Shown one piece after another: positions 4,585 to 49,098 of a stretch of 64,000 nt of DNA. The DNA is from Candidatus Aminicenantes bacterium (GTDB taxonomy: Bacteria; Acidobacteriota; Aminicenantia; Aminicenantales; JAFGBC01): contig OY969696.1 of the NCBI GenBank assembly GCA_963702005.1, positions 3,936,001 to 4,000,000 on the forward strand, given 5' to 3'. Every line of letters begins with the position of its first letter. Positions within the stretch are counted from its first letter, which is position 1. The notes below the pieces were generated by a model. The model saw only the letters and a program-made list of their open reading frames with translations, had not been told where the DNA came from and searched no databases. The position numbers and the translations under genes were made by a program.

Positions 4585-4750
4585 GGCTAACATATATTAG
4601 ATGGATCCGCATAAGATGCAATAATCTTGTATGTTGTCCGTATAAGACACCTTCCGATTTCTTGCCGAAGAGCCGAAAATACTCTCCTTTCAACGACTTG
4701 CTGCCCATCCGGCCATTTATTTCGGCATGTTATGCGGATCGGCATAAAAC
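4585..4750 (-). mobile_element. attI: attI site with upstream repeated putative IntI-binding motifs
   Basis: Minus strand ttatgcggatccatctaatatat-GTTAGCC directly before cassette 1, with no attC hairpin. Related motifs ttatacggac and ttatgccgatccgcataa lie between it and the intI stop. Confidence 0.75.
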
Positions 4751-4757
4751 CTCCCTT

Positions 4758-5270
4758 TTAAAGCTCGTCCACCGGGCTGCGAACGCCGGCCGGTCCGCGG
4801 TTGAGGACATGGGTATATATCATCGTTGTTTTGACGTCGCTATGGCCTAAGAGTTCCTGGACCGTCCGGATGTCGTAACCGCCTTCGAGCAAGTGGGTGG
4901 CGAAGGAATATCGGAAGGTGTGGCAAGTGGCCCGTTTCGTTAGACCTGCCTTCGTAACAGCATCTCTAACGGCTTTCTGAACGAGTGATTCGTCAACGTG
5001 ATGGCGACCTTGTTCCTTTGTCTCGGGATTGATCCTCCGGTTTTCCTGGGGAAAAACCCATTGCCAGCGCCATTCCGCGGGCGCGTTGGGATATTTCCGG
5101 TCCAAGGCGTTAGGCATCGCTACGCGTTCCCAACCCTCGGCCAAGTCGCGTTCATGAATGGTCTTCACACGCTTGAGGTGGTCTTGAAGCGGCGATTTGA
5201 GCGAGTCGGGAAGCATCGTGTTAACGAAGACGACTTCCTGTCTTGTCTGTAAATATCCCCCCGCCAACAT
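4758..5270 (-). pseudogene. intI: Integron integrase, N-terminal half deleted
   Basis: IntI-specific insert ([20 protein letters not shown]...RHH), [29 protein letters not shown]. Similarity begins only at TMLP (~5220), so box I Arg and the N-terminal domain are missing. Confidence 0.92.
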
Positions 5271-5308
5271 AGATAAAGGTTATCACGCTGATTCAAAAAA
5301 TGTCAAGA
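5249..5308 (-). promoter_or_regulatory. Sigma70-like promoter block upstream of the intI remnant
   Basis: TTGACA-18 nt-TAACCT with extended TG, 6 nt before an ATG; 44/60 identical by eye to 33453-33511. Confidence 0.65.
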
Positions 5309-5364
5309 TTTTATAGCTTGCGAGCGGGCAAGGACGGCTAAGTACCGAGGCGACAAGAAGCTTC

Positions 5365-7797
5365 CTACGTTTCCTCGATCAGGCCGACTTCGCGCCAATG
5401 GCCCGACAGCTTCTCGACCCGGATCGTCTTGACCTCGAACGGCTTGAAGGCGAACCGCATCTCGGCTTTGGGCTCGCGGAGATCGATCTCGGCCGCCGTC
5501 TCGATCCCGCACGCTTCCTGGAGCCTGAGGATGAGGGCCTCTCCTTCCCAGGCTTTTTTGCAGGCCAGGAGGCGGATGTTCAACGGCCTGACCGATAGAA
5601 ATTCCTCAACCCCGGCCGAACCCTCGCCGAAAGGAAGATGAGCATAGGCCACCGGAGGAGCGGCCAAATGATCGGCCAACCCGGGCATCATCCGCCGGAG
5701 GTCCTCGGGATCTCCCGCCGTGACGAGGAGTCGGACGTCGTGGGCGCCGAGGTCGGCGTACTTGGGAGACGGAGAATCGCCGAGCTTGAACCCGCGCTCA
5801 TGGCAGTAGGCCGCGCTCCGCAGGACCGAAAGGCGAAGCTCACCCCCCGCGAAGTCGAGCCCGTGCTGGCCGCTCGAGGCGACGCCGAGCCCGGCGCGCC
5901 GTCCTCCGACGGTTCCTTGCAGCAGGCACCAGCGGCCGTGGACATGCTCCTCGCCGTCGGCCGGCCGGAGGATGGCGCCGGCCGGAACCTCGCAGAAGAG
6001 ATCCCCGGCCTTGAAGACCGTCGGGACGCGCAATTTGAGGCGCTTCTGCTCCTCGTTCCAAAGAATCCGGAGTCGGACCTCGAGGACGGGCCAGCCTTGC
6101 CAAGAGCAGATGTCCACGGTCAGCCGGCTCCGTTTGTGGACGAGGACGGATTGGACGATCGTCCGGACGGGGCCTTTGGCCGACGTCTTAGGAAGGCCCT
6201 TGAGCTTGAACCGGCCGGCGACTTCCCGGTAGCTGGTGCGCCCCGTCCCCCAGGAATCGGCCGGGTCGTTGATAACGAGGGGCTCGAAAAGAGGGCCGGC
6301 CAGACATTCATCGCCCGCCGCGGTCTTGAGCGATCCGACCAGCCCGCGCCGCCGGTCATACTTGAACTTGAGGCCGGGCTTGGCGCTCCGCTCCTGCCTG
6401 GGGCCCGAAACGGCCAGAAGGTGGTAGCGCGAAACGCCCGCCCCGGGAAGCTCGTCGAGGAAACTGACCTTGCGGCGCCAGCCGTTGAAGGGAAGGAGCG
6501 ATTCCGGCTGCTCTTCCTGACAGGGGACTTCGCCGCCGTCCATCCGCATAAGCTTGAGGTGCCATTCGCCCGACCAGAACGGGCGGTAGTCGACCATGCT
6601 CTCGACCTCGACCGGGACTCGGGTCAAAGCCGCGTTCGTGTTCAAGAGCGTGACCGGGAGGCTGGGGCTCTCCTTGTCGCCGCGGTTGAGGGCGGCCGCC
6701 GCGGCCAGCCGGACGCGGCGGGCGGCCTCGGCGGCCCGGCCGTAGATGTCCAGGGCGTCCTGTTCGGCCGGCTCCGTGCAGCTCCCGGTGATGACGTCGT
6801 GGAAGTCATTGAAGAGATGGTCGCGCCAGGCGGCCCTGAGTTCGGCTTCGGGGAAACTCTCGTTCTTGCGCAACCAGGCCCAGGCAGCGAGCGCCTCGGC
6901 TTGGACGAGCCGGCCCAGGCTTTTGACGGCTCGCCGTTTGACCCGGCTCAACAACGTATAGCATCCCGTGAACACCCGCTGGAGATCGCCGACGACCACG
7001 GGTGCCGCGGCCGCGAAGTCCTTGAGGGCCGCGTAGAGCTTGTCGGGCGTGCTGTGGATGACGCGGACTCTCTGCTCCCTGGCGATGAAATCGTCGATGA
7101 TCTTGAGGTCCTCGCGGGTCGCCCCGCCGCCGTGGTTCCCCAAGCCCCAAAAAATGGGTACGTCGCGGCCGAGCTTGAGCGCCAGCCCGGTCCCCTCCTC
7201 GAGCCGCCGGCGGATGTTGTCGCGCTCGGTATGGTAGAGGCCGACGCTGATCCGGTAGGTCAGGATCTCGCTCCCGTCCACCCCCTGCCAGCGGTAGAGA
7301 TCGGCGGGAAGCGCGAGCTCGTCCGGCTGGGGCCGCATGTGGATGTACATCTCGTAGCCGGCCTCGCGGAGGAGCTGGGGCAGGCCGCCGCTATGGCCGA
7401 AGGAGTCGAAGTTGTAAGCGACGCGAGGGTGGGCCCGGAACCGCTCCCGGAAATAGCGGCGGCCCTCGGCGATCTGGCGGACGAGGGATTCCGTGCCCGG
7501 GAGGTTGAGGTCGGGCTGCAAGAACCAGCCGCCGCTTACGACCCAGCGTCCCCTGGCCGTCAGGTCCTGGATTTTCCGGAAAAGAGACGGATCGAGCTTC
7601 TCGACCCATTGGTAGAGGACGGCTTCGTTGTGATTGAAGATGAGCCCCGGGTGCTCGCGGAGAAGCCGGACCGCGGTCCGGAAGGTGGCCAGGGCCTCGG
7701 ACGCCCCTTCCTCCCAGCGCCACTGCCAGACGGGGTCGAGGTGAGCGCTGCAGATGAGGTGGACCGTGGGCTTGTTCATTTGATCGGGCTCACCCAT
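5365..7797 (-). CDS. Glycoside hydrolase family 38 (alpha-mannosidase-like)
   Basis: AHLDPVWQW, DSFGH, FNDFHDVITGS motifs; 810 aa. Confidence 0.9.
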   Translation of the reverse strand: MGEPDQMNKPTVHLICSAHLDPVWQWRWEEGASEALATFRTAVRLLREHPGLIFNHNEAVLYQWVEKLDPSLFRKIQDLTARGRWVVSGGWFLQPDLNLPGTESLVRQIAEGRRYFRERFRAHPRVAYNFDSFGHSGGLPQLLREAGYEMYIHMRPQPDELALPADLYRWQGVDGSEILTYRISVGLYHTERDNIRRRLEEGTGLALKLGRDVPIFWGLGNHGGGATREDLKIIDDFIAREQRVRVIHSTPDKLYAALKDFAAAAPVVVGDLQRVFTGCYTLLSRVKRRAVKSLGRLVQAEALAAWAWLRKNESFPEAELRAAWRDHLFNDFHDVITGSCTEPAEQDALDIYGRAAEAARRVRLAAAAALNRGDKESPSLPVTLLNTNAALTRVPVEVESMVDYRPFWSGEWHLKLMRMDGGEVPCQEEQPESLLPFNGWRRKVSFLDELPGAGVSRYHLLAVSGPRQERSAKPGLKFKYDRRRGLVGSLKTAAGDECLAGPLFEPLVINDPADSWGTGRTSYREVAGRFKLKGLPKTSAKGPVRTIVQSVLVHKRSRLTVDICSWQGWPVLEVRLRILWNEEQKRLKLRVPTVFKAGDLFCEVPAGAILRPADGEEHVHGRWCLLQGTVGGRRAGLGVASSGQHGLDFAGGELRLSVLRSAAYCHERGFKLGDSPSPKYADLGAHDVRLLVTAGDPEDLRRMMPGLADHLAAPPVAYAHLPFGEGSAGVEEFLSVRPLNIRLLACKKAWEGEALILRLQEACGIETAAEIDLREPKAEMRFAFKPFEVKTIRVEKLSGHWREVGLIEET

Positions 7798-7925
7798 TTT
7801 ACATGATTATTCGATCCGGAGCATAGAGCCTTTAGATCTTCCAGAATAAGAATTCCCCCCTTGGTCTCGGCACGGCTGATTTCGCGGCCGTCTTGTCAAC
7901 AAACCTAGCCTATTCTCCGTTTCTT

Positions 7926-7976
7926 ACTACGGGGAGCAGAATATAGATTGCATAATCCTTGCTGCTCCCCGAGTAC
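7926..7976 (-). repeat. GTAC-footed palindrome (REP-like)
   Basis: Minus strand GTACTCGGGGAGCAG-22 nt-CTGCTCCCCGtAGT, intergenic. Confidence 0.55.
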
Positions 7977-8051
7977 TAGCCGGGCGACAAAGAAATAGGG
8001 AGTCATCTATATTCCGCCCGGCTTAGTAAGAAAAGGCTCTATGAGGAGATC

Positions 8052-9290
8052 ATGATGAAGGCTCTGTCGATACGATTTCTTCAGCCGCCGCGGCTCTTTG
8101 CCGGCGCCATTCTCATCGCCGTCGTATCCGTTCCCATGGCGGCGCAGGACGCGAAGGTGGATATTTCCGCTTGCCGCGGCATGTACAACGTGCTGAAAGC
8201 CATGCGAGACGGTGAGCCGCGCGACAAGGTCTCTAGCATGCTGGACGCCTTGCTCGAAAAGCCGCCATATCGGATCATGTTCAAGCACTACAACCGCTCG
8301 TGGCGGCCCAACCATCTGCCCAAGGCCGTATTCAAGAGAATGATCCTCAGCCTCCAGTTTGAGGGCGAGTACTCTCCCGGCGAGAACGAACGCGCCGACG
8401 CGATGCGGGCGCGATGGACGAAGTATTACCCGGATCTCTCGCCCTACGACAGCCAGCTTGGCCAGCTCGAGTCCGCGAACCTGCCCAAGCTCATCAAGGA
8501 CGGAGTGAGATATGCGCAAGGCTGGCTCCCTCCGGGATGGAAGATTCCGGATTTTTGCTTTCCCGTCATCCCCAACGGAGGAAGCCCGGCCTTTACCATC
8601 GAAAATGCCCAAGGATATGATTTCCTCCAACTCTCGCAGGGGCGGCCGGGCGAACTGGACCTGAACTGGCTTGTGGGGACGGTCGCCCACGAATCCCATC
8701 ACATGGGCATGCGGTCCGTCGCGCCGGGCTCGCTGTCCCCCGCCGATGCCATGGCCTACCGTGTCGTCAGCCTCTGCGTCGCCGAGGGCGTGGCGACGGA
8801 GTTCATAAGCGGCCCGCCTGAGGGACGAGCGCCCGCCATCCCGGACGTACCGTTTCACGTTTTCACCGATGACCTCGCTAAAGCCTGGAAGGAGCATGTG
8901 GACGAGGAAGAGGACATCCTGAAGCACCAGATCGCCTTGCTCGACCAAGCCGCCGCCGGAGAGTTGACGGAGGAAGCACTCAACGCCGAGCTGCGCGATT
9001 ATTGGCTGAATGGCGTGGTCGGCCGCGCCTACGTTTTAGGAGCGGACATGTTCGGGGCTATCTACCTGGCGTTCGGAAAACAGGGCGTTTTCTTGGCCAT
9101 GAAAGACCCGCGGAGATTGTTCGAGATGTACAACGCCGCGCTCGACGCCAAACCCGAAGCCCTCAAGCGCTGTGTCCGCGTACCCGATGCCTCCGTCAAA
9201 CGGGCCCTCGCTATCGGAACGGCCAACATCCTTCCCGGCAAGCAGCCTGTCCCGTCCGTTGAGGCCGCCGATGCTCTCCGGCAAACCTGA
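8052..9290 (+). CDS. Secreted putative Zn-dependent protease (DUF5700/DUF2268-like)
   Basis: Signal peptide; HESHH (HExxH) followed by AEGVA. Confidence 0.7.
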   Translation: MMKALSIRFLQPPRLFAGAILIAVVSVPMAAQDAKVDISACRGMYNVLKAMRDGEPRDKVSSMLDALLEKPPYRIMFKHYNRSWRPNHLPKAVFKRMILSLQFEGEYSPGENERADAMRARWTKYYPDLSPYDSQLGQLESANLPKLIKDGVRYAQGWLPPGWKIPDFCFPVIPNGGSPAFTIENAQGYDFLQLSQGRPGELDLNWLVGTVAHESHHMGMRSVAPGSLSPADAMAYRVVSLCVAEGVATEFISGPPEGRAPAIPDVPFHVFTDDLAKAWKEHVDEEEDILKHQIALLDQAAAGELTEEALNAELRDYWLNGVVGRAYVLGADMFGAIYLAFGKQGVFLAMKDPRRLFEMYNAALDAKPEALKRCVRVPDASVKRALAIGTANILPGKQPVPSVEAADALRQT

Positions 9291-9310
9291 AATGGGTTGA
9301 TCGAACCTCT

Positions 9311-11071
9311 CTATCGTTCGTCTCGGGATGGCAGATTCTTATACCACGTGAAGAAAAGGACGGCCGCCAGCGAGAGGGCGACGGCGAGCCAGATCCCGAA
9401 TTGTCCCCAGCGCCTGAGGAAGGCGTAAAACGTGAGCAAAGCCAGCGAGAACTGAAACACCGCCGTTAATATTCCGTTCAGGGCGTCCATGGCCGGCATC
9501 TTGTCTCGGGCGGGGACGAGCCCGCGCCGGACGGCCTCGCGCCGGACCGGCCCCCAGAATCCAAAGGGCCGGATCCTGGCGTAGAACTTAACGAGGACGT
9601 CCATGTCGGTCGGCTTGTTGAGGAAGGTCATGATGATCGTAACGACGAGGCAGAGGCCGGTGTCGACGGCCAGAGAGCCCGCCGCGCCCAACGACCTGAA
9701 CAGCATGACGCGGCCCAGGACAAGGACGACCGAGATCCCCATGCTTCCGACAAAAGCCCGGGCGCTCATCCGCCAGTAGTGCCAACGCAGGGTGGCCGGG
9801 ACGAGGATGACCGTGACCCAGATGAAGATCATAGTCTCCCAGGCCGTCACGATGTGGGTGAAGGAAAGGCTGAAAACGAATCCGATAAATAGAGCGACGA
9901 CCGAGGCGACCTGGCCGATCCGGACGAGCTGCTTCTGGCTGAAGTCGCGCCGGACGTAGCGCTTGATGAAGTCGTTGGTCACGACCGAGCTGGTGACGTT
10001 GATCATGGCCGAGATGGTCGACATCAGGGCCGCCAGCAGGACGGCCATGAACAGACCCCGCACCCCGAGCGGAAGCTTGAGGAGGACGAGCGGCATGATC
10101 TTCTCGGCATCGAAGCCGGCCGCCGACCCCAAATAGACCATTCCAAGGCAGAGGAAGGCGCAGCCGATGATCCAGCGCAGCGTATAGCCGACCGTCCACA
10201 TGCCGCCGGCCAGGGAGGCGTCGCGCGGGGAGCGCGTCGTCAGGAAAAACTGGAAGTCCCAGACGTTGGGGCCGGCCAGGACGCGGAAGATGAGCCAGAG
10301 GAAGCCCGCCAACAGGATAGGCCCAAAGGCCTCGAAGTGCCCGTAAGCGGGCGGCGTCGTCGCCGCGTAGGACGGCCACAATCGCCAGGTGGGAGCGAGC
10401 GAGAACCAGGCCGGGTCCTTTCCGGCGAGGGCGGCCGGGACCGCGCTGTTTCCGAAGACCATGAAGGACAGGATGACCGCGCCGACGGCGATCAGGAACG
10501 TCTGGAAGACGTCGGTCAGGATGACCCCGAAAAAGCCGCCCAGCGTCACATAGATCCCGACCACGATCAGGACGATGAGCGAGGATTGCCAGCGAGGGAA
10601 GGGCAGGAACTCTTCGGCGAACTTCCCGGTCCCGACCGAGATGAACATGAGGTTGAAGATCATCAGGACGAGCAGGAAGACGGCCGCGCTGAACCGGGCG
10701 TATTCGGCATCCCGGGTCGCCCCGAACCGGGTCTCGTTCCACTCGGCGAAGGTCATGACGCCGGAGCGGCGGATCCACTTGGCCTGGAAGGCCATGTAGA
10801 AGCAGATGATGAACCAACCCCAGAAGATATGGGTCGCCCACATCGACTTGAGGCCGAGGTAGAACAGAACCCCGATCATGGACATCGTGCCGCCGATGTC
10901 GATGTAGCTCGAGCAGCCCGAGAGCCCCAGCATCCACCAGGGGACGTTCCGGTCGCCCAGGTAGTAGGAGTCGATTTTCTTGGTCGCCCGCTTGCGGACC
11001 GCGAGCCCGATCAGGGCGACCAAAAGAAGGTAGACGCCGATGATGGCCAGGTCGAGGGGTGGCAGTTTCAT
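9311..11071 (-). CDS. Sodium:solute symporter family protein
   Basis: Many TM helices; YYLGDRNVPWW, VILTDVFQ, LLAALMST motifs. Confidence 0.9.
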   Translation of the reverse strand: MKLPPLDLAIIGVYLLLVALIGLAVRKRATKKIDSYYLGDRNVPWWMLGLSGCSSYIDIGGTMSMIGVLFYLGLKSMWATHIFWGWFIICFYMAFQAKWIRRSGVMTFAEWNETRFGATRDAEYARFSAAVFLLVLMIFNLMFISVGTGKFAEEFLPFPRWQSSLIVLIVVGIYVTLGGFFGVILTDVFQTFLIAVGAVILSFMVFGNSAVPAALAGKDPAWFSLAPTWRLWPSYAATTPPAYGHFEAFGPILLAGFLWLIFRVLAGPNVWDFQFFLTTRSPRDASLAGGMWTVGYTLRWIIGCAFLCLGMVYLGSAAGFDAEKIMPLVLLKLPLGVRGLFMAVLLAALMSTISAMINVTSSVVTNDFIKRYVRRDFSQKQLVRIGQVASVVALFIGFVFSLSFTHIVTAWETMIFIWVTVILVPATLRWHYWRMSARAFVGSMGISVVLVLGRVMLFRSLGAAGSLAVDTGLCLVVTIIMTFLNKPTDMDVLVKFYARIRPFGFWGPVRREAVRRGLVPARDKMPAMDALNGILTAVFQFSLALLTFYAFLRRWGQFGIWLAVALSLAAVLFFTWYKNLPSRDER

Positions 11072-11136
11072 AAGGAAAGATTTATCTCAACAGCCGGCCT
11101 CTGTCAATCGTCGCCGGCGCGGCCCCGGATCGTCCG

Positions 11137-13329: not shown

Positions 13330-13386
13330 TGACCCCTCCGCTCGCTTACCAGGATGCTTCCATTATGCTTTCCGCCTCGGGGAGAG

Positions 13387-13646
13387 TCAACCCCGCGACT
13401 CCCCGGCATGAATGCCGGCACCCATGAACCGTATCCGGTTCATGAGTACTGCAAGGCTGGGCTTGTTCGGGGTTAACCCTGAGCCTACTCAGCCCCATTC
13501 CTTCTAAAAGGGCTGAGTACAAAAGTGTCGCTTCTCGTCCCCGCCCCGAAGCTCCACGGACTCACGTCCGTTGGAGCGCCTGTACTCATGAACCGTTTCC
13601 GGTTCATGAGTGTTGAAAGGCGGGGTGGCGTTGGCGAACGGGTCAA
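13387..13646. mobile_element. Non-autonomous IS200/IS605-like miniature element, copy 1, with nested palindrome insertions
   Basis: Shares its whole frame with 53011-53162 (TCAACCCC...CCCCGGCATGAATGCCGG...CCCCGCC..GGCGGGG...CGAACGGGTCAA), plus two inserts. Confidence 0.75.
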
Positions 13647-13709: not shown

Positions 13710-15545
<1,836 letters not shown>

Positions 15546-17925: not shown

Positions 17926-17933
17926 TTTCGTCC

Positions 17934-32689: not shown

Positions 32690-32762
32690 GCCCAACGTTC
32701 GCGTTCACCCGCGCCGGCACATGATGACGCCAGCCGGCGTCGGGTGCAACGCGGTGTTAGAC
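32690..32762 (-). mobile_element. attC: attC site of the SET cassette
   Basis: Minus strand GTCTAAC-accgcgttgcacccgacgccggctggcgtcatcatgtgccggcgcgggtgaacgcgaac-GTTGGGC, 73 bp. Confidence 0.92.
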
Positions 32763-32772
32763 GGCAGCGGTG

Positions 32773-33276
32773 TCACGGCGCGAGGGCCAGGCGTTCTGCA
32801 TGACGACGCACAAACCACTCGGCCAGCAGCGGCCGGTATTCTCTCTGCGTTTCCGCCGGGAGAAGGAAGAAGTCGCCAACGACCGTGCCTAGACAGCGAC
32901 TGGAACCACAGTGGCACGGCCAGGCACTCCCACCGGAGTTGTTCACGTTGTAGTCGATGGTGATTTCCTCGCCTGCGGCGATAGTCCGGCGAGCGATCAC
33001 GTAGCAGGCCTCCGCCTCATAACGCACGTAGGCATTGGGATCGCACGAGTGGTTGAGGTGCCGACTCGGAAACCCGATCAGGACGACCTTGCCATCTGGA
33101 TAGTCGCAATGGTCGAACCGTTCGCCCAGTTCTTCGCGGAGCGGTGCGTCCGCAGTGATCTCGCGGACAACATTGATCCGATGGATAGACTCGCGCTCCT
33201 GAAAGCGGCGACACGCGAACAACCCCAGGCCTTCGATGGCGGACCGCTTGACGGTGACGGCGTCTGGTTGACCCAT
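32773..33276 (-). CDS. SET-domain protein with post-SET cysteines; integron cassette
   Basis: SAIEGLGLFA, LNHSCDPN, GEEITIDY, CHCGSSRC. Confidence 0.9.
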   Translation of the reverse strand: MGQPDAVTVKRSAIEGLGLFACRRFQERESIHRINVVREITADAPLREELGERFDHCDYPDGKVVLIGFPSRHLNHSCDPNAYVRYEAEACYVIARRTIAAGEEITIDYNVNNSGGSAWPCHCGSSRCLGTVVGDFFLLPAETQREYRPLLAEWFVRRHAERLALAP

Positions 33277-33306
33277 TGTTGAGTGTCTCGATTCGATGTT
33301 CCTGCC

Positions 33307-33370
33307 GTCTAACAATGATTATATAGTTTCTCTATAACACCCTTTGCCGCCAAATTGCGGCATAACACGC
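33307..33370 (-). mobile_element. attI-like site without an integrase
   Basis: Minus strand gtgttatgccg...gtgttatagagaaactatataatcatt-GTTAGACGGC. The last 10 nt are the exact complement of the cassette's own R'' (GCCGTCTAAC). Confidence 0.65.
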
Positions 33371-33452
33371 CGCGCTCGATCTCGTCGTAAACCCTGTGAT
33401 TACTACTCCGCAGAACGCCTGCGGTGGTAGCCCGGGATGATATATGGTTTTC

Positions 33453-33511
33453 GTATATATCCCCCTTTAGCATGATTAGAGATTATCATTCTGATTTTAA
33501 AGATGTCAAGA
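33453..33511 (-). promoter_or_regulatory. Second copy of the intI-upstream promoter block
   Basis: TTGACA...TGATAATCT...ATG..GGGGATAT; 44/60 match to 5249-5308. Confidence 0.65.
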
Positions 33512-33578
33512 GCCCAAACCGGTCCGAAAACAAGGCATGTTCCGACTGCTCGAAGACGCGGGAATACGGCACCCGATT

Positions 33579-34232
33579 TCATTCGCCGAACATCTCGGTG
33601 ATAAGCCGCCGGAGGGCGGAGGCCTCGTCATTGGAGAGAGATTCGATCCTTGGGCCTAAGCGACTTTTACTGACGGTTCGGATCTGATCGACCGCGACCT
33701 CAGCCGGCTGGCCCGCGCACTGAATCGGCAGCCGGCATCTCCAGGCCGGATGAAGCTGGCTGGTGATCGGGCAGATCGTCACGGTTTGAAGCCGCTTATT
33801 CAGGTCATCCAGGCTGACGATAACCACCGGTCTGGTCTTGGCCATTTCTGCTCCACGAGCGGGATCTAAAAGCGCCCAGCGCACTTCATAGCGTTTGACG
33901 GCTTCCTTGCGGGGGTGGAGCTTCGATCCGTATGGAGTTCTCTTTTCCCTGACCCTCCTCCCTATCGACGCTTGCCAGGGGACAGAATCCAATCCGTCCG
34001 TGTCCAAAACGTCCCATTCGCTCCAATCTTGGTTCGCGGCCGACATCTCCCGGGCCGTATCTTCCCAACTGAGCTTCTCGACGGCAGGTCCCGCGGGCCG
34101 GAGAAGGATCCCCTCGGATCGTTCTTCCATGACCAGCACGGAACCCACGGCATATCGTTTCAACGACGAGGCCGGCAGGCGGACCCCACGGGAGTTTCCG
34201 ATCCGAGCGACTTTCAGCTCCTGGGTTTTCAT
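33579..34232 (-). CDS. Fused AbrB/MazE antitoxin - PemK/MazF toxin
   Basis: N-terminal ARIGNSRGVRLP; C-terminal LDPARGAEMAKTRPVVIVS...PITS...DQIRTVSKSRL; no internal stop; TTGACA-17-TACAGT promoter and AGGAGG RBS. Confidence 0.88.
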   Translation of the reverse strand: MKTQELKVARIGNSRGVRLPASSLKRYAVGSVLVMEERSEGILLRPAGPAVEKLSWEDTAREMSAANQDWSEWDVLDTDGLDSVPWQASIGRRVREKRTPYGSKLHPRKEAVKRYEVRWALLDPARGAEMAKTRPVVIVSLDDLNKRLQTVTICPITSQLHPAWRCRLPIQCAGQPAEVAVDQIRTVSKSRLGPRIESLSNDEASALRRLITEMFGE

Positions 34233-34458
34233 TTTCGGCCCTCCTTTGATTAAACTTCGATGTTATTACTGTAGTTACATTGGGGAGGAATGTCAAGGCC
34301 TGAATCAAATCCTTAGCGCTACTTCTTGAGAAAGAGCCACGTCCACGCCCGCAGCGACGGCATCATCCTCCGCGTCAACGGCTATGCCTTTCTCAAGCGA
34401 AAGGGACGACAGCCGGCCCTGGATTGTACCGGGATCAAGACGGTTAAGGACGATCACT

Positions 34459-34507
34459 GTGTTGCGGAGCGTAGCGGAGCGACGTCGGTTGCGACCCGTT
34501 GCTAGGT
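34459..34507 (-). mobile_element. Degenerate half attC
   Basis: ACCTAGC-aacgggtcgcaaccgacgtcgctccgctacgctccgc overlapping the stop codon; right arm absent. Confidence 0.45.
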
Positions 34508-35428
34508 TTTGCTGCTATGCTCCACAGTTATGACTACATTTCCCTTTTTGTGCCCTATTTCGACATACCTGTGTGCCTCGATAATTTGTTCCAAGGGATA
34601 GCGTCTATCTATGACCGATTTTATTTTTCCTGCCTCAATAAGCTTTTTGAGGAAGACTAGATCTTCGGTCTTTTCCTTTCCTGAAGATCCCAATACAGAA
34701 AGAAAGACTCCTTTCTCATTCAGCGATCTCTTGCTTCGTGAAGACGAACTCTTGCCTACCGCGTCAAAAATAACATCATAGGTCTCGCCACTTTGGGCAA
34801 AATCCTCTTTAGTGTAATCAATGACCTTATCCGCTCCCAGAGCTTTCACCCACTCTAGATTCGTGGCACTGCATACCCCCGTAACCTCTGCTCCCAAATA
34901 CTTTGCAATCTGCACCGCAAAAGAACCTACGCTTCCAGAAGATCCATAGATCAGAACTTTCTGCCCCTTCTGGATGTTTCCTTTTCTAAGAAAACGTAAT
35001 GCTGTAGGTCCCCCAACAGGAACGGCTGCGGCCTCCTCAAAGGTCATATCGGTCGGTTTAACTGCCAGCATCCCGTCTTCAGGAAAGCATTTGTACTCGG
35101 CATAACCACCAAAACTCACTCCGAAGGTAGATGCAAAAACCTGATCGCCTTTCTTAAACAGCTTTACATCTTTGCCTACGGATTCAATTTCCCCGGCTAA
35201 CTCCATCCCCAGTATAGATCTCTTCGGTTTTCTAATACCTAAATATATTCGCGCGAAGAGCCATTGCCCGCGAGGAACTCTAAAACTTCGCATTCTCACA
35301 TCCCCTGCCGTTACTGTTGTTGCACAGACTTTCACAAGTACTTCATTTTCCTTGGGGGTTGGTTTTTCTACTTCTTTGAGCTGAAGAACATCCGGTGGCC
35401 CATATTTTGCGTATACAATCGCTTTCAT
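34502..35428 (-). CDS. NAD(P)-dependent MDR-family oxidoreductase
   Basis: [40 protein letters not shown]; markedly lower GC than its neighbours. Confidence 0.92.
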
Positions 35429-40557: not shown

Positions 40558-40602
40558 GATTTCGCTGCCGTCTTCCCGACGGCAACCGCAAAGAGAACTA
40601 GC

Positions 40603-42063: not shown

Positions 42064-42198
42064 TTTTAGACTCCTCGCTTAGTCTATCATGATTTCCTTC
42101 CGCTATTAAGGTTCGTTCTTGTCCATTCTCGTTCGTTCTCGTTTTTGACAAAGGGTCCAAAAATAGTCTAAATTGACCCCTTCCGGATTGGAACGACC

Positions 42199-43491: not shown

Positions 43492-43640
43492 TGATCGTCA
43501 CGATCCTTTATTATCTGCTGACGGCCTTGGTGGCCGCCCTCATCATCTGGAACGTCGTCAAGAGCCGCAAGTGGCAGGACGAGATTCTCTACGTCATCGT
43601 CCTCATCCCCTTTCTGCTGCGGCTCCTTAGGTTAAAATGA
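43491..43640 (+). CDS. Small membrane protein (49 aa)
   Basis: MIVTILYYLL...LLRLLRLK; stop/start overlaps with both neighbours. Confidence 0.75.
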   Translation: MIVTILYYLLTALVAALIIWNVVKSRKWQDEILYVIVLIPFLLRLLRLK

Positions 43641-44790
43641 ATCGGCGCAAAATTGTCATCGGGATTTTCGGCCTGGCCCTCCTCTTTTTTTCCGGGGCGA
43701 GCTTCTACCGCAGCCGCCATCTTAAGGAGCCCGTCGTCGCGAGCGCCGGGGTCGCCAAGGTCGTGAAGCTGGGCGACTATTTCCAGGGAGTTCGGGGAAC
43801 GATCAACGACTCCAACGTCTATGTCTTGGAAGGCTCTGAACCGGGCGGGACCATCCTCGTCCTGGGCGGCTCGCATCCCGAGGAGCCGGGGGGCGGCTGG
43901 CGGCCTGGATCCTGGCCGAACAGGGTATTGTCCGGAAGGGCCGCCTGTTGGTCGTTCTTTCCGCCAACCGGAGCGCGACGACGGTGACCCGGCTGGGCGG
44001 CGCCTATCCGCCCGACTTCTCGATCAAGACGAGCTGGGGCGCTCAGACCTTCCGGATGGGCGATCGCTGGTCAAATCCGCTCGACCAATGGCCGGACCCC
44101 GAGGTCTACATCCATTATCCGAGCCGCCAGGAGCTGGCTTACGTCGACATCCGCAACCTCAATCGAGCCTGGCCGGGACGCAAGAACGGCACCCTGACCG
44201 AGCGGACTTGCTTCGCTTTGATCGAGCTCATCCGCCGCGAGAAAGTCGACATCGTCATCGACCTCCATGAGGCCGAACTCCAATATCCGGTCATCTCGAC
44301 CATCGTCGCCCACCAGAAGGGACAGGACCTGGCCGCGATGGCCTCGATGATGATCTCGGGCTCGGAAGGGTTCAACATCGGCGTCGAGTATTCGCCGCTG
44401 ACCCTCCACGGCCTATCCCACCGCGAGATCGGCGACCACACCGATGCGATCTCGCTCCTGCTCGAGGCGCCCGAACCCTTCCTGGACGCGACGCGGGGCC
44501 GGACCGGGACCGATCTGCTGTTGACCGGCCGCGATCCCTTCATCGTCAAGGCCGGCCGGCACGGGCTGCTGTTCGAGAAGATCGACGAGAAAGGCTGGCC
44601 GATCGATGTCAGGGTCGGCCGTCACACATCGGCAATCCTCCAGATTCTGGAAACTTGGTCCGGGGACAAGCCCGACCGGGCCGTCGTCCTCGAAGGAATC
44701 CCCCGCTACCAAGAAGTTGTCGCCAAGGGCGTGGGCGCGTTCTTGCGCGACCCGTCCAAAGCGGACCCTAAATCAATTTACTACGAATAG
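43637..44790 (+). pseudogene. Succinylglutamate desuccinylase/aspartoacylase-like deacylase, frameshifted in a G6 tract
   Basis: GGSHPEEP in one frame continues as GRLAAWILAE...NLNRAWPG...IDLHE in another; one base is missing at 43888-43893. Confidence 0.8.
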
Positions 44791-44845
44791 ATGTCGCGGA
44801 TCAGGCGGGGTTATTGGCCATCGCTTGCATCCGCCTTTTTAGGCG
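44791..44845 (-). mobile_element. Degenerate attC
   Basis: GCCTAAa-aaggcggatgcaagcgatggccaataaccccgcctgatccgcgac; L boxes pair but R' is lost at the junction with the deacylase stop. Confidence 0.55.
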
Positions 44846-45239
44846 GAGTGCTGTTGTTTGACGCATCTTCCGAAGAGAGAATCCAGCGAATGGCGCTTTC
44901 AAAGTCCGTGAAGGCATTAACCGAAAAACCGCGGTTATGCGAGCATGTCTCAAGGAACGCGGCGGAGTCAAATGCGACGCCCGGAAAAACGAGAACGGCC
45001 ACTTTTCTGTGAAAGGTGTCGCCGTGCTCGCTGAGTTCCGCTGCAAGCCGATACAGATCGACCGTCGACATCTGCCACTGCGTGTCACGGAAATCAATGA
45101 GCAGATCGTAGTCCACCGGGTGGTGCTCAGCCTTGGCTATATCTACAAGAAGTTGTCTGCTTGTGGTGATGTCGATGATTCCCTCGGGAGCTACTTCAAG
45201 AAAATCCCCCGTCGTGATGATTTTGATCTTTGTTGCCAT
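44811..45239 (-). CDS. Hypothetical protein (possibly SpoIIAA/STAS-like), cassette-derived
   Basis: GGAGG RBS; LLIDFR, KVAVLV, FLET...RG..VNAFTDFESAIRW; C-terminus runs into the attC. Confidence 0.7.
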   Translation of the reverse strand: MATKIKIITTGDFLEVAPEGIIDITTSRQLLVDIAKAEHHPVDYDLLIDFRDTQWQMSTVDLYRLAAELSEHGDTFHRKVAVLVFPGVAFDSAAFLETCSHNRGFSVNAFTDFESAIRWILSSEDASNNSTPPKKADASDGQ

Positions 45240-45321
45240 GCGATCCTCCCCCGCCCAAATTCCCAGATTAAATAATATAACATCGCACATAAAATATCAA
45301 CATAGAATCGGCCGCGATCCC

Positions 45322-45551
45322 TTAGATTTTTAATCCGGGCGCCGGGGTGGCCAGCACCGCTATGTAGGCGGCAAAGGTCGGTCCCAGGCCGCCGAGCATG
45401 TTAAGAAGCATGAAGGGCAGGTGGCCATAGACCGTCGTCCGCGCGCGAGCCAGCGGCACCAAGATCCCCCAACAGGACCAACTGACCAGAAACGAGACCG
45501 CCAGAAAGATATTGAGACGGCTCAGGGGATTTCCGGAATAGTCAGCTTCAT
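45322..45551 (-). pseudogene. N-terminal remnant of a CPBP/Abi-like membrane protease
   Basis: FLAVSFLVSWSCW...LGGLGPTFAA, then abrupt end. Confidence 0.5.
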
Positions 45552-46138
45552 TTGCTTTCAATGTCGTCCGATTGGATGAGCGCCACCTTGTTCTGTTTAT
45601 CAAGGACATAGTGCTGCAGCAGCGTAGCGTTTGCAAATTCCGTGCGATAACGATAGTTCCGCCAACCGTCCTCATCCCAGCGTGCGACAAGGGTCATCGA
45701 GATAAAGCCGCCGAGCCGTTTCAGATCGGCCTGAAGCTCCTTTTGGTTGGGATAAAACTCCTTCCAAAAATCAGCGGTGTAGTCGCCGGGCCGGACGGTG
45801 CCGCCGAACATATCCTCAACGATGGCGTAAAGATGTTTCGTGACATCGGGTTCCCGGTCGGGAATCGGCTCCCATTTCTCCATGAATCCCGCCACCCAAT
45901 CGAAGGCGAGGCCTTCCGTGTTGACTCCACCTTGGGGCTGACCGTCATCAAATCCGACATAGGCGCAGCCCCAATGCCCTTCTCCGGCCGGAACAAACCA
46001 TATCCGGCTCTTGGGGTTCGACCAATCCTCGTTATTACAGAAGAGCGCCCGTTTCGCATCGGTGAGCACGAAGATGGTGCAGGCAAGAACCGGCGCGGAG
46101 ATGGAGCAAAAAAAGGCCAAGGCAAGACCATGTTTCAT
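45548..46138 (-). pseudogene. Ntn-hydrolase-like gene, apparently internally deleted
   Basis: Signal peptide then CTIF...NNEDW...QGGVNTEGLAFD; the fold seems cut after about 95 aa and joined to a C-terminal domain. Confidence 0.55.
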
Positions 46139-46644
46139 CGGGCGGCGCTTTGTTCGGCATTCTGAAAGAGGAGTTGCCAATAACCCACGTCAATCCACCG
46201 GCCGAACTTCCGGCCAACCTCCTTAAAATGCGCAACCTTGACAAATCCCAGACTTTCATGCAGAGCCACGCTGCCTTCATTCGGCAGGGCGATCCCTCCA
46301 ATGGCTCCATGCAAGGAACGGTTGCGAAGCTCGGATATCAGAGATTCATACAGCTGTCTTCCTATCCCTTTGCCGATGAAATCGGGATGGAGATAGATGG
46401 CGCTCTCCACGGAAAATCGATAGGCGCAGCGACTCTTCCATTGGCTCGCATAAGCATAGCCAACGACTTTTCCGTTTTCCTCGAACACAAACCATGGCAA
46501 AGAAGATGTTACTTCCGCGATTCGGCTCCGCATCTCCTGGATGGGAACGGGTTCTTCCTCAAAAGAGATGAGGGTATTCTTAACGTAATGGTTGTATATA
46601 TCGCAAATAGCCCCTGCATCTTCGATTTTTACATTGCGTATCAT
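46135..46644 (-). CDS. GNAT N-acetyltransferase (YncA/Pat-like); integron cassette
   Basis: IYNHYV, GYAYA, GKGIG, NEGSVALHESLGF, VGRKFGRWIDV; flanked by GTTCGGC and its complement GCCGAAC. Confidence 0.92.
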   Translation of the reverse strand: MIRNVKIEDAGAICDIYNHYVKNTLISFEEEPVPIQEMRSRIAEVTSSLPWFVFEENGKVVGYAYASQWKSRCAYRFSVESAIYLHPDFIGKGIGRQLYESLISELRNRSLHGAIGGIALPNEGSVALHESLGFVKVAHFKEVGRKFGRWIDVGYWQLLFQNAEQSAAR

Positions 46645-46656
46645 GGCTTTCCTTCC

Positions 46657-46686
46657 GCCGAACATTATTTACATCGATCCGTATAA
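46657..46686 (-). mobile_element. attI-like site without an integrase
   Basis: aacattatttacatcgatccgtataa (46661-46686) vs aacatatattagatggatccgcataa (4589-4614): 20/26 identical, ungapped. Confidence 0.75.
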
Positions 46687-46706
46687 TACTCCCAACATGG
46701 CTTTGG

Positions 46707-46786
46707 AGGAAGTCGTGGCTAAGGGGACGGATGCGTTCCTGCGCAACCCGTCTAAAGCGGCCCCTAAGTCTATTTATTACGAATAG
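46707..46786 (+). repeat. Diverged duplicate of the deacylase 3' end
   Basis: EVVAKGTDAFLRNPSKAAPKSIYYE* vs EVVAKGVGAFLRDPSKADPKSIYYE* at ~44713-44790. Confidence 0.9.
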
Positions 46787-46841
46787 GACCTTCCTGTCGA
46801 CGAACTAAAAAACGTATAGCTTTATCTAATACATTTTTCAG

Positions 46842-46878
46842 TTGACAATATGTCCAATATGACATATCCTTTTGAAGG
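46842..46878 (+). promoter_or_regulatory. Promoter/operator of the HigBA-like module
   Basis: TTGACA-17 nt-TATCCT; palindrome ATATGTC-caatat-GACATAT. Confidence 0.72.
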
Positions 46879-47211
46879 ATGATTTTTACAGATAAACCGC
46901 TTGTCTGGCTTCATGGTGAGGTTAAGACCCCACCCCTTTCCAAGGAGGCCCGATTGGAGGTTGGATACTTGCTTCGCTTGCTTCAGAGCGGGGAGTCTTT
47001 GAAAATACCTTGGTCTCGGCCAATGCCATCCCTGGGGCTCAGGTGTCACGAGCTGAGGGTTAATGATGTCTTCCGTACCTGGAGAATCATTTACAGAATA
47101 GACCCCGATGCGATCGTGATTCTAGAGGTTTTTCGGAAGCAAACGCGGAGCACGCCCAAGTCCATCTTGGACTCATGCCGGAAGCGTTTGCGAGACTATG
47201 ATGCCTGTTAG
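46879..47211 (+). CDS. RelE/HigB (Gp49-like) toxin
   Basis: KPLVWLHGEVKTPP, SRPMPS, CHELRV, WRIIYR, EVF.K.T..TP. Confidence 0.9.
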   Translation: MIFTDKPLVWLHGEVKTPPLSKEARLEVGYLLRLLQSGESLKIPWSRPMPSLGLRCHELRVNDVFRTWRIIYRIDPDAIVILEVFRKQTRSTPKSILDSCRKRLRDYDAC

Positions 47212-47222
47212 AGAGGTTTAAA

Positions 47223-47528
47223 ATGGATGCAGCCAAACGAAAAAGACTCGAAAAAGCAGGGTGGAAAGTCGGTACACCTCAAGAATTTCTCAACCTATCC
47301 AAAGAAGAGGCGGTCTATATTGAACTCAAACTCCGACTGGCAAAAGAACTCCTTGAACGCCGGCGGTCGCTTGGGATGAGCCAAATCGCGGTCGCGAAAA
47401 GAATACGTTCAAGCCAATCAAGAGTCGCGAAGATGGAAGCGGGAGACCCGTCCGTCTCCATTGATTTGCTCGTCAGGTCATTACTCGCCCTGGGCGGAAC
47501 CGTTCAGGCTCTACATAAGGCTTTTTAA
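47223..47528 (+). CDS. XRE-family HTH antitoxin (HigA-like)
   Basis: KRKRLEKAGWKVG, SQIAVAKRIRSSQSRVAKMEAGD. Confidence 0.9.
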   Translation: MDAAKRKRLEKAGWKVGTPQEFLNLSKEEAVYIELKLRLAKELLERRRSLGMSQIAVAKRIRSSQSRVAKMEAGDPSVSIDLLVRSLLALGGTVQALHKAF

Positions 47529-47644
47529 TCAGGTCGGCCGGCATACCTCCGCCGCTTGCAGATTCTTTAAAATTGATCGGAAGACGAGCCCGCCGCGCTA
47601 TCGCGATCAAGGGCATCGCCTGAAGTGCCTTATTAGCTGCACTA

Positions 47645-48058
47645 TCATAACAACCACATCACATATCGGACATGCCCCGTTTGAGCGTTCACAAGGAATA
47701 CCCAGACTGATTTGTCGGCAGAATATTCAAGGACAACATACCCTTTATTTTTCTGTCCGTTTATATAGGTTTGCCAACGCGAAAGCGGTAGTTTTTGGCC
47801 GGAGTATGGCCTTAAATACCTTAAGAACTCATTTGTTTCCTTTGGATCATACTGAAATTCTCCTTCAGATTTGTTTGTATCGAGATCGTTCGATGTCGTA
47901 ATATTTCTCGCTGACGAGGGGATAATATTAGGCAGCCAGCCCCGTTCAAAAACCTTTTCTGCCTCCGATTCGGATCGAGTGGCATAATGATTGGAAACAG
48001 CATTATTGCACGCCCCGAACAGAAAGAGGATAAGCACGATTATTGAAATGATTCTCAT
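47645..48058 (-). CDS. Putative lipoprotein; integron cassette
   Basis: LFGAC lipobox, RGWLP; starts after GTTAGTT; degenerate R'' (GCTAATaaggcacttcaggcg) after the stop. Confidence 0.7.
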   Translation of the reverse strand: MRIISIIVLILFLFGACNNAVSNHYATRSESEAEKVFERGWLPNIIPSSARNITTSNDLDTNKSEGEFQYDPKETNEFLRYLRPYSGQKLPLSRWQTYINGQKNKGYVVLEYSADKSVWVFLVNAQTGHVRYVMWLL

Positions 48059-48070
48059 ATTCACATTCTC

Positions 48071-48154
48071 AACTAACGATTTAAGCTCAAGCATGCCGCC
48101 ATACGAACTTCACGTCGTGGCGTCGTCTGCCGCGGCTTCTTAGACTCGTTATGC
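48071..48154 (-). mobile_element. attC: attC site (imperfect)
   Basis: GCATAAC-gagtctaagaagccgc...gcggcatgcttgagcttaaatc-GTTAGTT, 84 bp between two co-oriented low-GC ORFs. Confidence 0.6.
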
Positions 48155-48168
48155 GCCAGCTGATCCTT

Positions 48169-48696
48169 TTATTTTTTACTTAAATCAATGATTGAATATA
48201 TCTTACTAAGGCGGGGTTCGCAACTTGATAACAAATGTGGATCTTGTCGGAGATTTTCTTCAAATTCAATTAGCCCCTCTGAAAGAGCGTGCTCGAGCGC
48301 CTCAAGTTCAACGCCTGTATGAGCCTCTGGTTTAGGGGCACGCTTGATTACCTCTCTAATGGTCTCAATCCCGCCAGCACCCCAACAATATAACAAGCGT
48401 CGTGCGTGGCCAGTTTGAGTTGCAGTAGAATCAGGAGTTGCAGTATGTAGAATTGCGCATCTGGCTCCCCAAAGGTCAGAAGAGTTCACGTCGGAAAGGT
48501 GTTTGATAAGGTACTTGTCAACGAATTTTCGAAAACGCGGACCAGCTTGTTTATCATCGCCTCCCGCCCAAATATACGAAAACATATCGATCGTCGTATA
48601 CATAATGATAAGGTATCCAAGGGGCAAATCGGCGCGATAAAGGGCATTGAGGGCACGTTTCTGTTGCTCGGCCAGTTGTTTGAACCGCTCAATCAT
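48169..48696 (-). CDS. Hypothetical protein with HEPN-like R-x4-H motif; integron cassette
   Basis: FRKFVDKYL...DLWGARCAILH; GTTAGAC just before the ATG. Confidence 0.68.
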   Translation of the reverse strand: MIERFKQLAEQQKRALNALYRADLPLGYLIIMYTTIDMFSYIWAGGDDKQAGPRFRKFVDKYLIKHLSDVNSSDLWGARCAILHTATPDSTATQTGHARRLLYCWGAGGIETIREVIKRAPKPEAHTGVELEALEHALSEGLIEFEENLRQDPHLLSSCEPRLSKIYSIIDLSKK

Positions 48697-49098
48697 ATAG
48701 GTCTAACCATTAATATTTATCATGTAACAATTGATACGACATCTACCTAATTTACGAAATATTTTGAGTAACTCCATTTAATTGCCCCACAATATTGCGG
48801 TATTATTTTAGAATTATCCATATAAGATTTCAAATGGAATCAGATTTTCAGCTTTGCCGATAGCCAAGCTATTATTTTTAGTTTAGCCGGTGATCGTTAT
48901 TTAGGCCCCCCTCAAGGCGATTTGTAGAAAATAAAGATTATGTCACAAAGGAGGCCACCTCAAACTCTAAGGAAACCGTAGATCCGAAGTCAGTTTATTA
49001 CTAAAAAAACAATTATAACGGATAGGCTTCTATCTCCATTCCTGCCGAACGCTGTTTGAACCTCTCCTCATCAGCAGCTATAAGTCATGCGGCCTGTC

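Follow-up and report, generated by a model that had tools for sequence, protein, structure and literature searches.

Probable remnants of separate reverse integrons, each without its integrase gene, in a Candidatus Aminicenantes genome

Reverse integrons, also referred to as “unusual” or “inverted” integrons, have been described in Treponema denticola, Chlorobium phaeobacteroides, and Blastopirellula marina, and their attI is called poorly conserved and omitted from analysis in the accessible portions of the reports concerned (PMC6557892, PMC3607928). Here, we analyze a 64,000-nt stretch of the genome of a Candidatus Aminicenantes bacterium (contig OY969696.1, positions 3,936,001 to 4,000,000; hereafter the window, whose numbering is used unless a position is marked as a genome position), which contains four attI-like sites: locus 1 (4585-5312), locus 2 (46655-46705), locus 3 (33307-33515), and locus 4 (48701-48840). 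As in the reverse integrons of those reports, transcription of intI and of the cassettes runs the same way, with attI downstream of intI; unlike them, intI appears to be deleted at every window locus, and the three-part attI layout presented below is not described in the portions of the two papers at hand. We propose that the four sites are probably the attI of separate reverse chromosomal integrons, each a remnant left by deletion of its intI, with its cassette array frozen.

Cassette arrays without a working integrase are themselves well documented, as attC-site clusters that have no integron integrase (CALINs) and as “pseudo-integrons” (PMC4889954, PMC2426708), and the window arrays resemble them in this respect. 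According to the available text on CALINs, their origin is uncertain, intI loss is one proposed origin, an intI pseudogene lay near only 15 of the 279 CALINs of Cury et al., and an attI search was impossible because attI is unknown for most integrons (PMC4889954). About one intI gene in three is a pseudogene, about 20% of integron-bearing genomes have two or more intI, and some intI pseudogenes stem from duplication within a genome, as stated in the accessible part of that survey (PMC2426708). The window differs from the CALINs as there described (PMC4889954) in that its attI is recognizable and a sister genome reveals a clean deletion without a pseudogene; loci 2, 3, and 4 also fall below the CALIN definition of two attCs, because locus 3 has one and loci 2 and 4 have none. 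A reverse chromosomal integron that lost intI and kept its sites has been published as well, but as a single event in one lineage, whereas here several platforms per genome are found and the end points of deletions are defined. Finally, delta-attI-type gene cassettes of class 1 and class 2 mobile integrons also place attI fragments within arrays, where they are still usable by the integrase; as far as the accessible text of that report goes, they are short attI1 or attI2 remnants at the ends of resistance cassettes in a clinical setting, whereas here whole promoter-plus-attI platforms lie in environmental reverse integrons (PMC12901181).

The genomes compared are labeled G000 (the source genome, 4.31 Mb in one contig), G001 and G002 (congeners), and G023 (a complete genome from another family of the same order). 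The evidence for intI loss is most direct at locus 3. Positions 1571-2572 and 3605-3753 of contig C36 of G001 correspond to window positions 34453-33453 and 33457-33309, at 94% identity on both sides, and the 1,032 bp between them (C36 2573-3604), which hold an intact IntI of 344 amino acids (aa; 489.6 bits), are absent from the window; 5 nt are common to both sides at the joint. This alignment shows locus 3 to be the counterpart of the congener's predicted intact integron minus exactly 1,032 bp, the whole of intI, and the same comparison gives locus 3 the arrangement of a reverse integron. The predicted promoter retained there matches the consensus at 11 of 12 positions in a promoter scan, within a block 94% identical to that of C36.

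At locus 1, the first-pass annotation, which was made from the letters of the window alone, had overlooked that the frame beside the first site (4758-5270) is a truncated integron integrase, and likewise that loci 1 and 3 have a promoter block in common. Against the TIGR02249 profile, applied to the whole genome with a cut-off of 265 bits, this frame scores 238.6-241.2 bits, with coverage confined to profile positions 163-315. In an alignment with the G001 IntI, its residues 1-16 correspond to the same residues there and its residues 18-170 to residues 192-344 (80% identity), which shows that codons 17-191, about 175 in number, were deleted in frame. The integrase fragment, the attI, the open reading frames (ORFs), and the attCs of locus 1 all lie on the minus strand, and this co-orientation identifies it as a “reverse” integron with attI downstream of intI. 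The array that follows extends to at least genome position 3931264 and has at least five attCs (three in the window), among them those at genome positions 3935310-3935366 and 3931264-3931379, and the intI fragment adjoins it.

The block common to loci 1 and 3 spans 75 nt (TTGACA, 16 nt, GATAAT or GATAAC, ATG, and a run of G) and lies ahead of the intact intI of C36. In the source genome it occurs only at window positions 5312-5235 and 33515-33440 and at genome positions 3933629-3933558 (E 1e-15 to 1e-18). A strict sigma-70 scan called no predicted promoter at locus 1 because the -10 hexamer ends in C. The third occurrence belongs to locus 1b (genome 3933385-3933629), situated 2.4-2.6 kb ahead of the window start within the locus 1 array, which joins the promoter block and a few codons to a complete attI of subtype A and has no integrase whatsoever. 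Subtype A platforms are also found in G001, where the one on contig C101, read as about 14 first and about 22 last intI codons joined, has a deletion that is different from and larger than that of locus 1.

The sites themselves belong to a recognizable attI family. In its full form, a palindromic double box follows the intI stop, a direct-repeat box lies about 100 nt further on, and a last box precedes the crossover, with an AT-rich stretch between that box and the sequence GTTRRRY. At locus 1 this architecture is complete, and at locus 3 it is partial, the deletion joint having cost part of the first box; locus 2 has only the core, and locus 4 has the layout of subtype D. To place it more widely, IntI relatives were collected by a search with the locus 1 integrase fragment, in which 593 of 600 candidate stretches were confirmed and the best 80 loci were used. 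The closest relatives among these 80 include metagenome-assembled genomes (MAGs) labeled Pirellulales, Planctomycetota, Chlorobiaceae, and Treponema, and the three-part layout lies behind intI in L021, L022, L025, L026, L030, L031, L033, and L040; the MAGs in which it recurs are labeled Pirellulales, Nitrospirales, Nitrospira, Chlorobiaceae, Omnitrophota, Lentisphaeria, and Planctomycetia, among others.

From the same 80 loci we built a profile of 18 attI cores, none from the source genome; the cores were chosen with a permissive regular expression and according to where they lie behind intI, a choice that shaped the profile, and their distance from the intI stop is 99-180 nt in 17 of the 18 training loci and 50 nt in the remaining one. 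The profile took the place of an nhmmer search that had the locus 1 core as its only query sequence and was too weak (best E 4e-4, small database). Across the whole genome its top five places score 14.5-19.6 bits and the sixth 8.3 bits; locus 1b is the best, and loci 3 and 1 are among the five (Table 1), while locus 4 has no match with it.

Further assignment came from attI queries, that is, regions behind the intI reading frames of same-order genomes, compared by BLAST with the whole source genome. In that order, 121 genomes were surveyed for intI, of which 10 have an IntI match at E <= 1e-40 and 6 exceed the cut-off. Queries from behind full-length intI frames find loci 3, 4, and 2 (E 2e-54, 6e-15, and 0.025, respectively). 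By these comparisons, the window sites are four predicted attI subtypes (A at locus 1, B at locus 3, C at locus 2, and D at locus 4) and not one copied platform, and each subtype has its putative counterpart behind an intact intI in some other genome of that order. The IntI linked to subtype C is 80-81% identical to that of subtype B, and the one linked to subtype D is 48% identical. One of the subtype D matches, L020 (contig C346 of genome G008; 1,713 nt, with a full-length intI frame of 435 bits), carries the same 48 nt inverted at positions 7-54 and 1660-1707; this terminal sequence corresponds to the subtype D attI's palindromic box, and the inverted ends are probably an assembly effect at the palindrome.

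No intact intI is present in the 4.31-Mb genome, where none of the 18 TIGR02249 matches reaches the cut-off (best 238.6-241.2 bits); relative to a complete integron, the intact integrase is thus what is missing, and an attI with its G|TT joint and a cassette with an attC are present at loci 1 and 3. Nothing resident could therefore serve the sites in trans, and the arrays are therefore frozen. The first-pass annotation was right that all four sites lie on the minus strand and that none adjoins an intact intI. It had gone on to suggest that one attI platform had been multiplied in the window to provide several capture points for an IntI encoded elsewhere, and neither part of that suggestion finds support here: no IntI in this genome reaches the cut-off, and each of the four subtypes matches an attI behind the intact intI of a different genome. 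Loci 1 and 3 moreover carry the deletion scars of their own intI, the pattern of independently decayed full integrons that the annotation had itself set against its proposal. Multiplication of an attI platform is seen outside the window, in G023 and as the tandem of loci 1 and 1b. As for the attI and promoter sequence that the four sites were said to share, the attI architecture is indeed common to them and the promoter block is present at loci 1 and 3, but there is none at loci 2 and 4.

The motif from which the annotation started is real. The 26-mer at 4589-4614 and its recurrence at 46661-46686 agree at 20 of 26 positions, a level reached in none of 200 shuffled windows, and an ungapped extension to the two start codons gives 33 of 51. 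Matches of at least 20/26 occur at only three places in the genome, namely the site itself, 46661, and genome position 3933388, the last 2.6 kb ahead of the window start. The shorter TTATRCGGATC has four copies in the genome, three of them inside the window, and the pattern TTATRCGGATC-N12-GTT gives 21 matches in 15 of the 246 genomes of the order against a single match for the reversed control, well above background as had been anticipated; 14 of the 21 have an AT-rich, attI-like spacer as judged by reading. We interpret the pattern as combining the predicted last integrase-type box with the G|TT crossover in the attI family of reverse integrons.

In metagenomes, a tighter pattern was found in at least 119 stretches of contigs; the 80 loci examined contain 81 matches, and for 66 of these the upstream sequence spans at least 450 nt. 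Among the matches listed, 56 of these 66 copies have no IntI similarity, 8 have similarity over 26-89 aa, and 2 over 269 aa, which may be one sequence from two assemblies; the palindromic box is kept in 26 of the 66 (its distance from the core is 132-135 nt in 25 of these), and a control segment in none. Also among the matches listed, 33 of the 37 attC matches in these loci lie downstream on the motif strand, so that the expectation of cassette arrays behind the motif elsewhere is borne out; 1 lies upstream on the same strand and 3 on the other strand. The motif therefore appears, from these contigs, to head arrays that usually have no integrase, and many of the copies may share descent. In the IntI loci of other phyla (among the best 80), none of the 11 plus-strand attC matches (13 matches in all) is upstream.

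G023 has no intact IntI (best 191.6 bits), five pattern matches, and at least six platforms, in each of which intI was deleted differently. Identity among three of these platforms is 88-96% across about 250 nt on the promoter side and about 115 nt of attI; by reading, the shared sequence stops at the G|TT of attI on one side and close to the GTTAGGC of an attC on the other, exactly so in one copy. The copies lie within a 10-kb stretch that has 11 minus-strand attC matches, 10 of them at E < 0.01, and an attC stands directly upstream of three of the four copies read according to the model and of the fourth by eye. The generalization that a platform always occupies a cassette slot holds in G023 and was rejected for the metagenome loci and the other phyla, on the counts given above.

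These platforms bear on the alternative that integrase-less heads, consisting of attI with or without the promoter, are kept as non-autonomous platforms that are copied to new places and served in trans by a rare intact IntI in the cell or the population, with a dependence like that of miniature inverted-repeat transposable elements on a transposase encoded elsewhere; within arrays, such heads may spread as units through a circle closed at attI and integrated by attI x attC recombination. We regard this as unlikely for the window, and its wider form, in which such heads would be the predominant and maintained state of the attI family, mini-platforms that provide fixed points of capture and expression, are served in trans by the rare intact IntI of a population, and copy themselves into cassette slots by attI x attC, as doubtful, even if self-copying is conceivable because “intI + attI” in a reverse integron has the topology of “ORF + attC.” Several observations are in its favor: the near-identical G023 platforms behind attCs in a genome without an intact IntI; locus 1b within the locus 1 array, together with a Chlorobiaceae MAG in which a deleted platform lies 3 kb down the array of an intact one; G001, with one intact IntI and three integrase-less platforms; the many metagenome copies that have no IntI similarity, and those that keep the palindromic box; and the likeness of G000 to G001 at subtypes A and B, which ends at the crossover and is followed by differing sequence. 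On the other hand, no IntI is available in this genome, and the window has four subtypes, whereas an attI is recognized only by its cognate integrase according to the accessible text of PMC2095811. Same-strand upstream attCs are also rare outside G023 (1 of 37 among the matches listed, and 0 of 11 on the plus strand); homology that ends at crossovers is expected from ordinary cassette turnover around a duplicated segment as well; many of the metagenome copies may be one old deletion inherited vertically; and both the circular intermediates and the recombination of platforms are hypothetical, deduced from sequence. For the window, the wider idea of multiplied platforms served in trans is thus unsupported, because there are four subtypes with integrase scars of their own and no resident IntI.

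Two explanations would dispense with integron remnants altogether. Ordinary insertion of cassettes at secondary GTT sites by an integrase active elsewhere, with the attI likeness arising from chance and AT-rich promoter sequence, is a known route to integrase-less cassette clusters, as the available text of PMC4889954 relates, and it would suit loci 2 and 4, which have neither attCs nor integrase scars. It is largely refuted, and in our view highly improbable, given the shuffle control and the alignment of loci 4, 3, and 2 over 138, 149, and 51 nt to attI linked to intI; the excess of pattern matches over the reversed control also speaks against it. More improbable still is a reading of TTATRCGGATC as the operator or promoter sequence for some host regulon that has nothing to do with integrons, which could draw on the fixed distance of the motif upstream of the start codons at loci 1 and 2 and on the AT-rich, -10-like sequence after it. 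Its genome copies number only four, all in integron contexts except the palindrome partner, and attC arrays follow the motif in metagenomes, while in other genomes it lies behind intI.

The reading as separate integrons that each lost intI has its own difficulties. Loci 2 and 4 have no intI scar or promoter block, so that their being “own” integrons is deduced from subtype alone; locus 2 is weak with the general attI-core profile (6.6 bits, E 80), and its assignment is based on the E value of 0.025 and on likeness to contig C433 of G001. The -10 hexamer of locus 1 does not pass the strict scan, and the promoter role of the block at both loci is a prediction. The assembly is a single contig of 94% completeness, and a plasmid-borne intI is possible. 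Loci 1 and 1b are of the same subtype in tandem, and together with the three closely similar platforms of G023 they indicate that platforms are able to multiply within a genome. Finally, a long IntI match in only 2 of the 66 metagenome copies, among the matches listed, is more extreme than simple decay would predict.

We nevertheless favor loss of intI from separate reverse integrons, for which a gain to the cell can be envisaged. In a reverse integron, intI would sit between its own promoter and the attI with its cassettes, and a clean intI deletion would bring that promoter near the first cassette, to about 0.2 kb at locus 3 and about 0.7 kb at locus 1, and would at the same time rid the cell of a costly recombinase. 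Such a twofold gain could explain why every decayed copy that we read has a large deletion and not point mutations. Loci 2 and 4 may likewise be integrons of their own minus intI. Locus 1b and an array at 3.31 Mb are best supported as further reverse integrons frozen by loss of intI. The latter is integrase-less (genome 3311777-3314315; L115 6777-9315); its subtype C attI head lies at genome positions 3314315-3314212, attCs at 3313184-3313125, 3312381-3312295 (weak), and 3311916-3311851, and another attI core, at 3311803-3311777, follows an attC by about 50 nt.

The features of the window, together with the profile and BLAST matches elsewhere in the genome, are collected in Table 1. The attCs were called with a covariance model (R1) built from 18 attCs of the source genome and other genomes and run on the window with filters off; genome-wide, the attC count is a lower bound, since scoring of the best 150 candidates missed two sites that a direct search finds. 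Scans of the window for Rfam families and for tRNAs gave 0 matches each.

Table 1. Coordinates of predicted features at the four loci, and of attI matches in the source genome
Feature	Coordinates	Strand	Basis
Locus 1: intI promoter block (TTGACA, 16 nt, GATAAC) and first intI codons	5235-5312	-	profile E 1e-15 to 1e-18
Locus 1: truncated integron integrase, 170 aa, in-frame internal deletion	4758-5270	-	TIGR02249; alignment to G001 IntI
Locus 1: complete attI, subtype A	4585-4757	-	three-part layout; core profile
Subtype A double box	4730-4747	-	
Subtype A direct-repeat box	4635-4646	-	
Subtype A last box	4604-4614	-	
Subtype A crossover GTTAGCC	4585-4591	-	
Cassette 1 ORF, AAA_16 ATPase with MarR-like tail	3292-4572	-	Pfam
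attC of cassette 1	3284-3355	-	R1 23.6 bits, E 0.008; fold z = -4.7
Cassette 2: N6 DNA methylase (1600-3231) and type I specificity subunit-like protein (689-1603)	689-3231	-	Pfam, PADLOC
attC of cassette 2	635-694	-	R1 48.9 bits; training member of the model
Cassette 3 ORF, GmrSD_N / NsnA-like, extending beyond the window	1-615	-	Pfam, PADLOC
Locus 3: intI promoter block (TTGACA, 16 nt, GATAAT), start codon (33473-33471), and about 5 intI codons	33440-33515	-	profile E 9e-18
Locus 3: deletion junction, intI removed	33453-33457	-	alignment to G001:C36
Locus 3: attI, subtype B, crossover GTTAGAC (33307-33313)	33307-33457	-	BLAST E 2e-54
SET-domain cassette ORF, 167 aa	32773-33276	-	Pfam SET, E 4.5e-15
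attC of SET cassette	32690-32762	-	R1 37.8 bits, E 6e-6, outside the training set; fold z = -3.4
Context upstream of locus 3: MazF/PemK-domain frame (33579-34232) and zinc-dependent dehydrogenase ORF (34502-35428)	33579-35428	-	Pfam
Locus 2: attI 3' 50 nt, subtype C, crossover GTTCGGC (46657-46663)	46655-46705	-	BLAST E 0.025
GNAT acetyltransferase ORF	46135-46644	-	Pfam
Signal-peptide ORF, internally shortened	45548-46138	-	G017 homologue
Orphan 78-nt repeat of the 3' end of gene 43948-44790, next to locus 2	46709-46786	+	direct repeat, 81%
Toxin-antitoxin-like pair, Gp49/HigB-like and HTH protein, on the opposite strand in the island	46879-47528	+	Pfam
Locus 4: attI, subtype D, crossover GTTAGAC (48701-48707)	48701-48840	-	BLAST E 6e-15, 3e-9
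Two ORFs behind locus 4	48169-48696; 47645-48094	-	no Pfam/PADLOC family, no R1 match
attI-core profile, locus 1b	genome 3933418		19.6 bits
attI-core profile, other top-five places	genome 3311803; genome 3314253		
attI-core profile, locus 3	33341-33307		16.2 bits, E 0.055
attI-core profile, locus 1	4619-4587		14.5 bits
BLAST with G001:C36 attI, locus 3	33457-33309		149 nt, 94%, E 2e-54
BLAST with G074:C47 attI, locus 4	48840-48703		138 nt, 67%, E 6e-15
BLAST with G008:C346 attI, locus 4	48833-48786		48 nt, 87.5%, E 3e-9
BLAST with G089:C18 attI, best match	genome 3314315-3314212		104 nt, 72%, E 4e-14
BLAST with G089:C18 attI, second-best match, locus 2	46705-46655		51 nt, 70.6%, E 0.025

The cassette behind locus 3 was described in the first-pass annotation as a SET cassette with 10-bp complementary ends and an attC, preceded by a looser copy of the attI, and this description holds: the attC is called by the model, and the ends read TGTTAGACGG at 33314-33305 and CCGTCTAACA at 32764-32755. 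The unit also occurs on metagenome contigs from four runs of different studies, covering sediment and peat. On one contig of 1,878 nt the match extends over 32694-33313 with 2 differences in 620 nt, and both flanks are unlike the window; in two other runs the match also ends at 32694, and in one of these at 33313 as well. The recurrence of these limits in other contexts therefore fixes both crossover points. It also shows that the cassette was shared recently between contexts, and its entry before or after the loss of intI is equally compatible with the sequences.

Toxin-antitoxin-like genes adjoin the integron remnants in two places, one being the Gp49/HigB-like and HTH pair of the island. 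The other is upstream of locus 3, where the MazF/PemK-domain frame stands directly 5' of the promoter; this frame is also present in C36 of G001. The latter contig (L111) has an attC at 1387-1458 (24.2 bits, E 0.008) on the same strand, upstream of toxin-antitoxin-like genes and the intact platform, so the intact integron platform of the congener likewise comes after an attC. In the window itself, the dehydrogenase ORF ends, by eye only, in what resembles a cut attC; R1 makes no call there.

At locus 1, the first cassette ORF starts 13 nt past the crossover and has a Shine-Dalgarno sequence. The cassettes of this locus (1-4572) resemble defence genes, comprising the AAA_16 ATPase, the N6 methylase with its specificity-like partner, and the GmrSD_N / NsnA-like protein. 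Elsewhere in the window, between a GH38 gene and the next ORF, the segment 7923-8036 contains about 105 nt that recur at 83-93% on congener contigs (two of G001 and seven of G002), with no Rfam or tRNA match.

Loci 2 and 4 lie in a decayed island of 4.3 kb (44791-49098) that is absent in G002, where the flanking genes are 8 bp apart, and only the 3' 50-140 nt of attI are retained at the two loci. Within the island, R1 calls no attC at E <= 10 with filters off, and no integrase of another kind was seen. Locus 2 is 86% identical over 49 nt to the site on C433 of G001, which heads cassettes with attCs. Behind it, the annotation had recognized a GNAT cassette by its complementary ends, and these are present (GTTCGGC at 46663-46657 and GCCGAAC at 46158-46152), but the attC is absent: the stretch 46080-46160 has none and folds no better than shuffles (z = +1.1), and the GNAT stop overlaps the next start (ATGA at 46138-46135). 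By eye only, the attC looks cut after about 20 nt. A broken GNAT copy in genome G025 has an attC-like site behind it by eye, where R1 makes no call at E <= 1. The homologue of the next ORF (45548-46138) in genome G017 is about 530 nt longer, with an attC called ahead of it by the model (53.2 bits) and another seen behind it by eye, and we read locus 2 as a collapsed array.

The fourth entry, for which two more cassettes had been claimed, fares similarly. The GTTAGAC at 48707-48701, 4 nt ahead of an ORF, and the subtype D attI are present, but the two cassettes are unproven, since the ORFs have no R1 match behind them and the folds at 48.1 kb and 47.6 kb are like those of shuffles (z = 0.0 and 0.07). 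Two attC candidates from a first by-eye reading, at 48170-48080 and 47640-47530, were dropped for these reasons, and the latter stretch resembles a piece of a neighboring gene. Neither Pfam nor PADLOC assigns a family to 44811-45290, to 45548-46180, or to the ORFs behind locus 4. Beside the island lies an AstE/AspA-like gene (43948-44790) whose last 78 nt (44713-44790) are repeated 2 kb on, next to locus 2, and the segment 47532-47617 is 73% identical over 88 nt to the part of its G001 homologue just before the repeated end; these repeats suggest repeated insertions at the 3' end of this gene.

In the literature searched, which left subscription-journal full text and supplements outside, neither the attI layout, nor clean intI deletions that keep promoter and attI, nor a predominance of integrase-less heads is described. 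The analysis yields a recognizable attI family for reverse integrons, common across phyla. For the unsettled origin of integrase-less cassette clusters, this family provides a marker, by allowing integrase-less heads to be traced to a clean intI deletion, base for base, against a sister genome. Nearly all environmental copies of the motif, among the matches listed, have no intI; if they represent many independent losses, this suggests that reverse integrons tend to freeze, and such a tendency, if real, probably results from removal of the recombinase together with movement of the promoter onto the first cassette. The attI family also makes the use of such heads in trans a question that can be tested.

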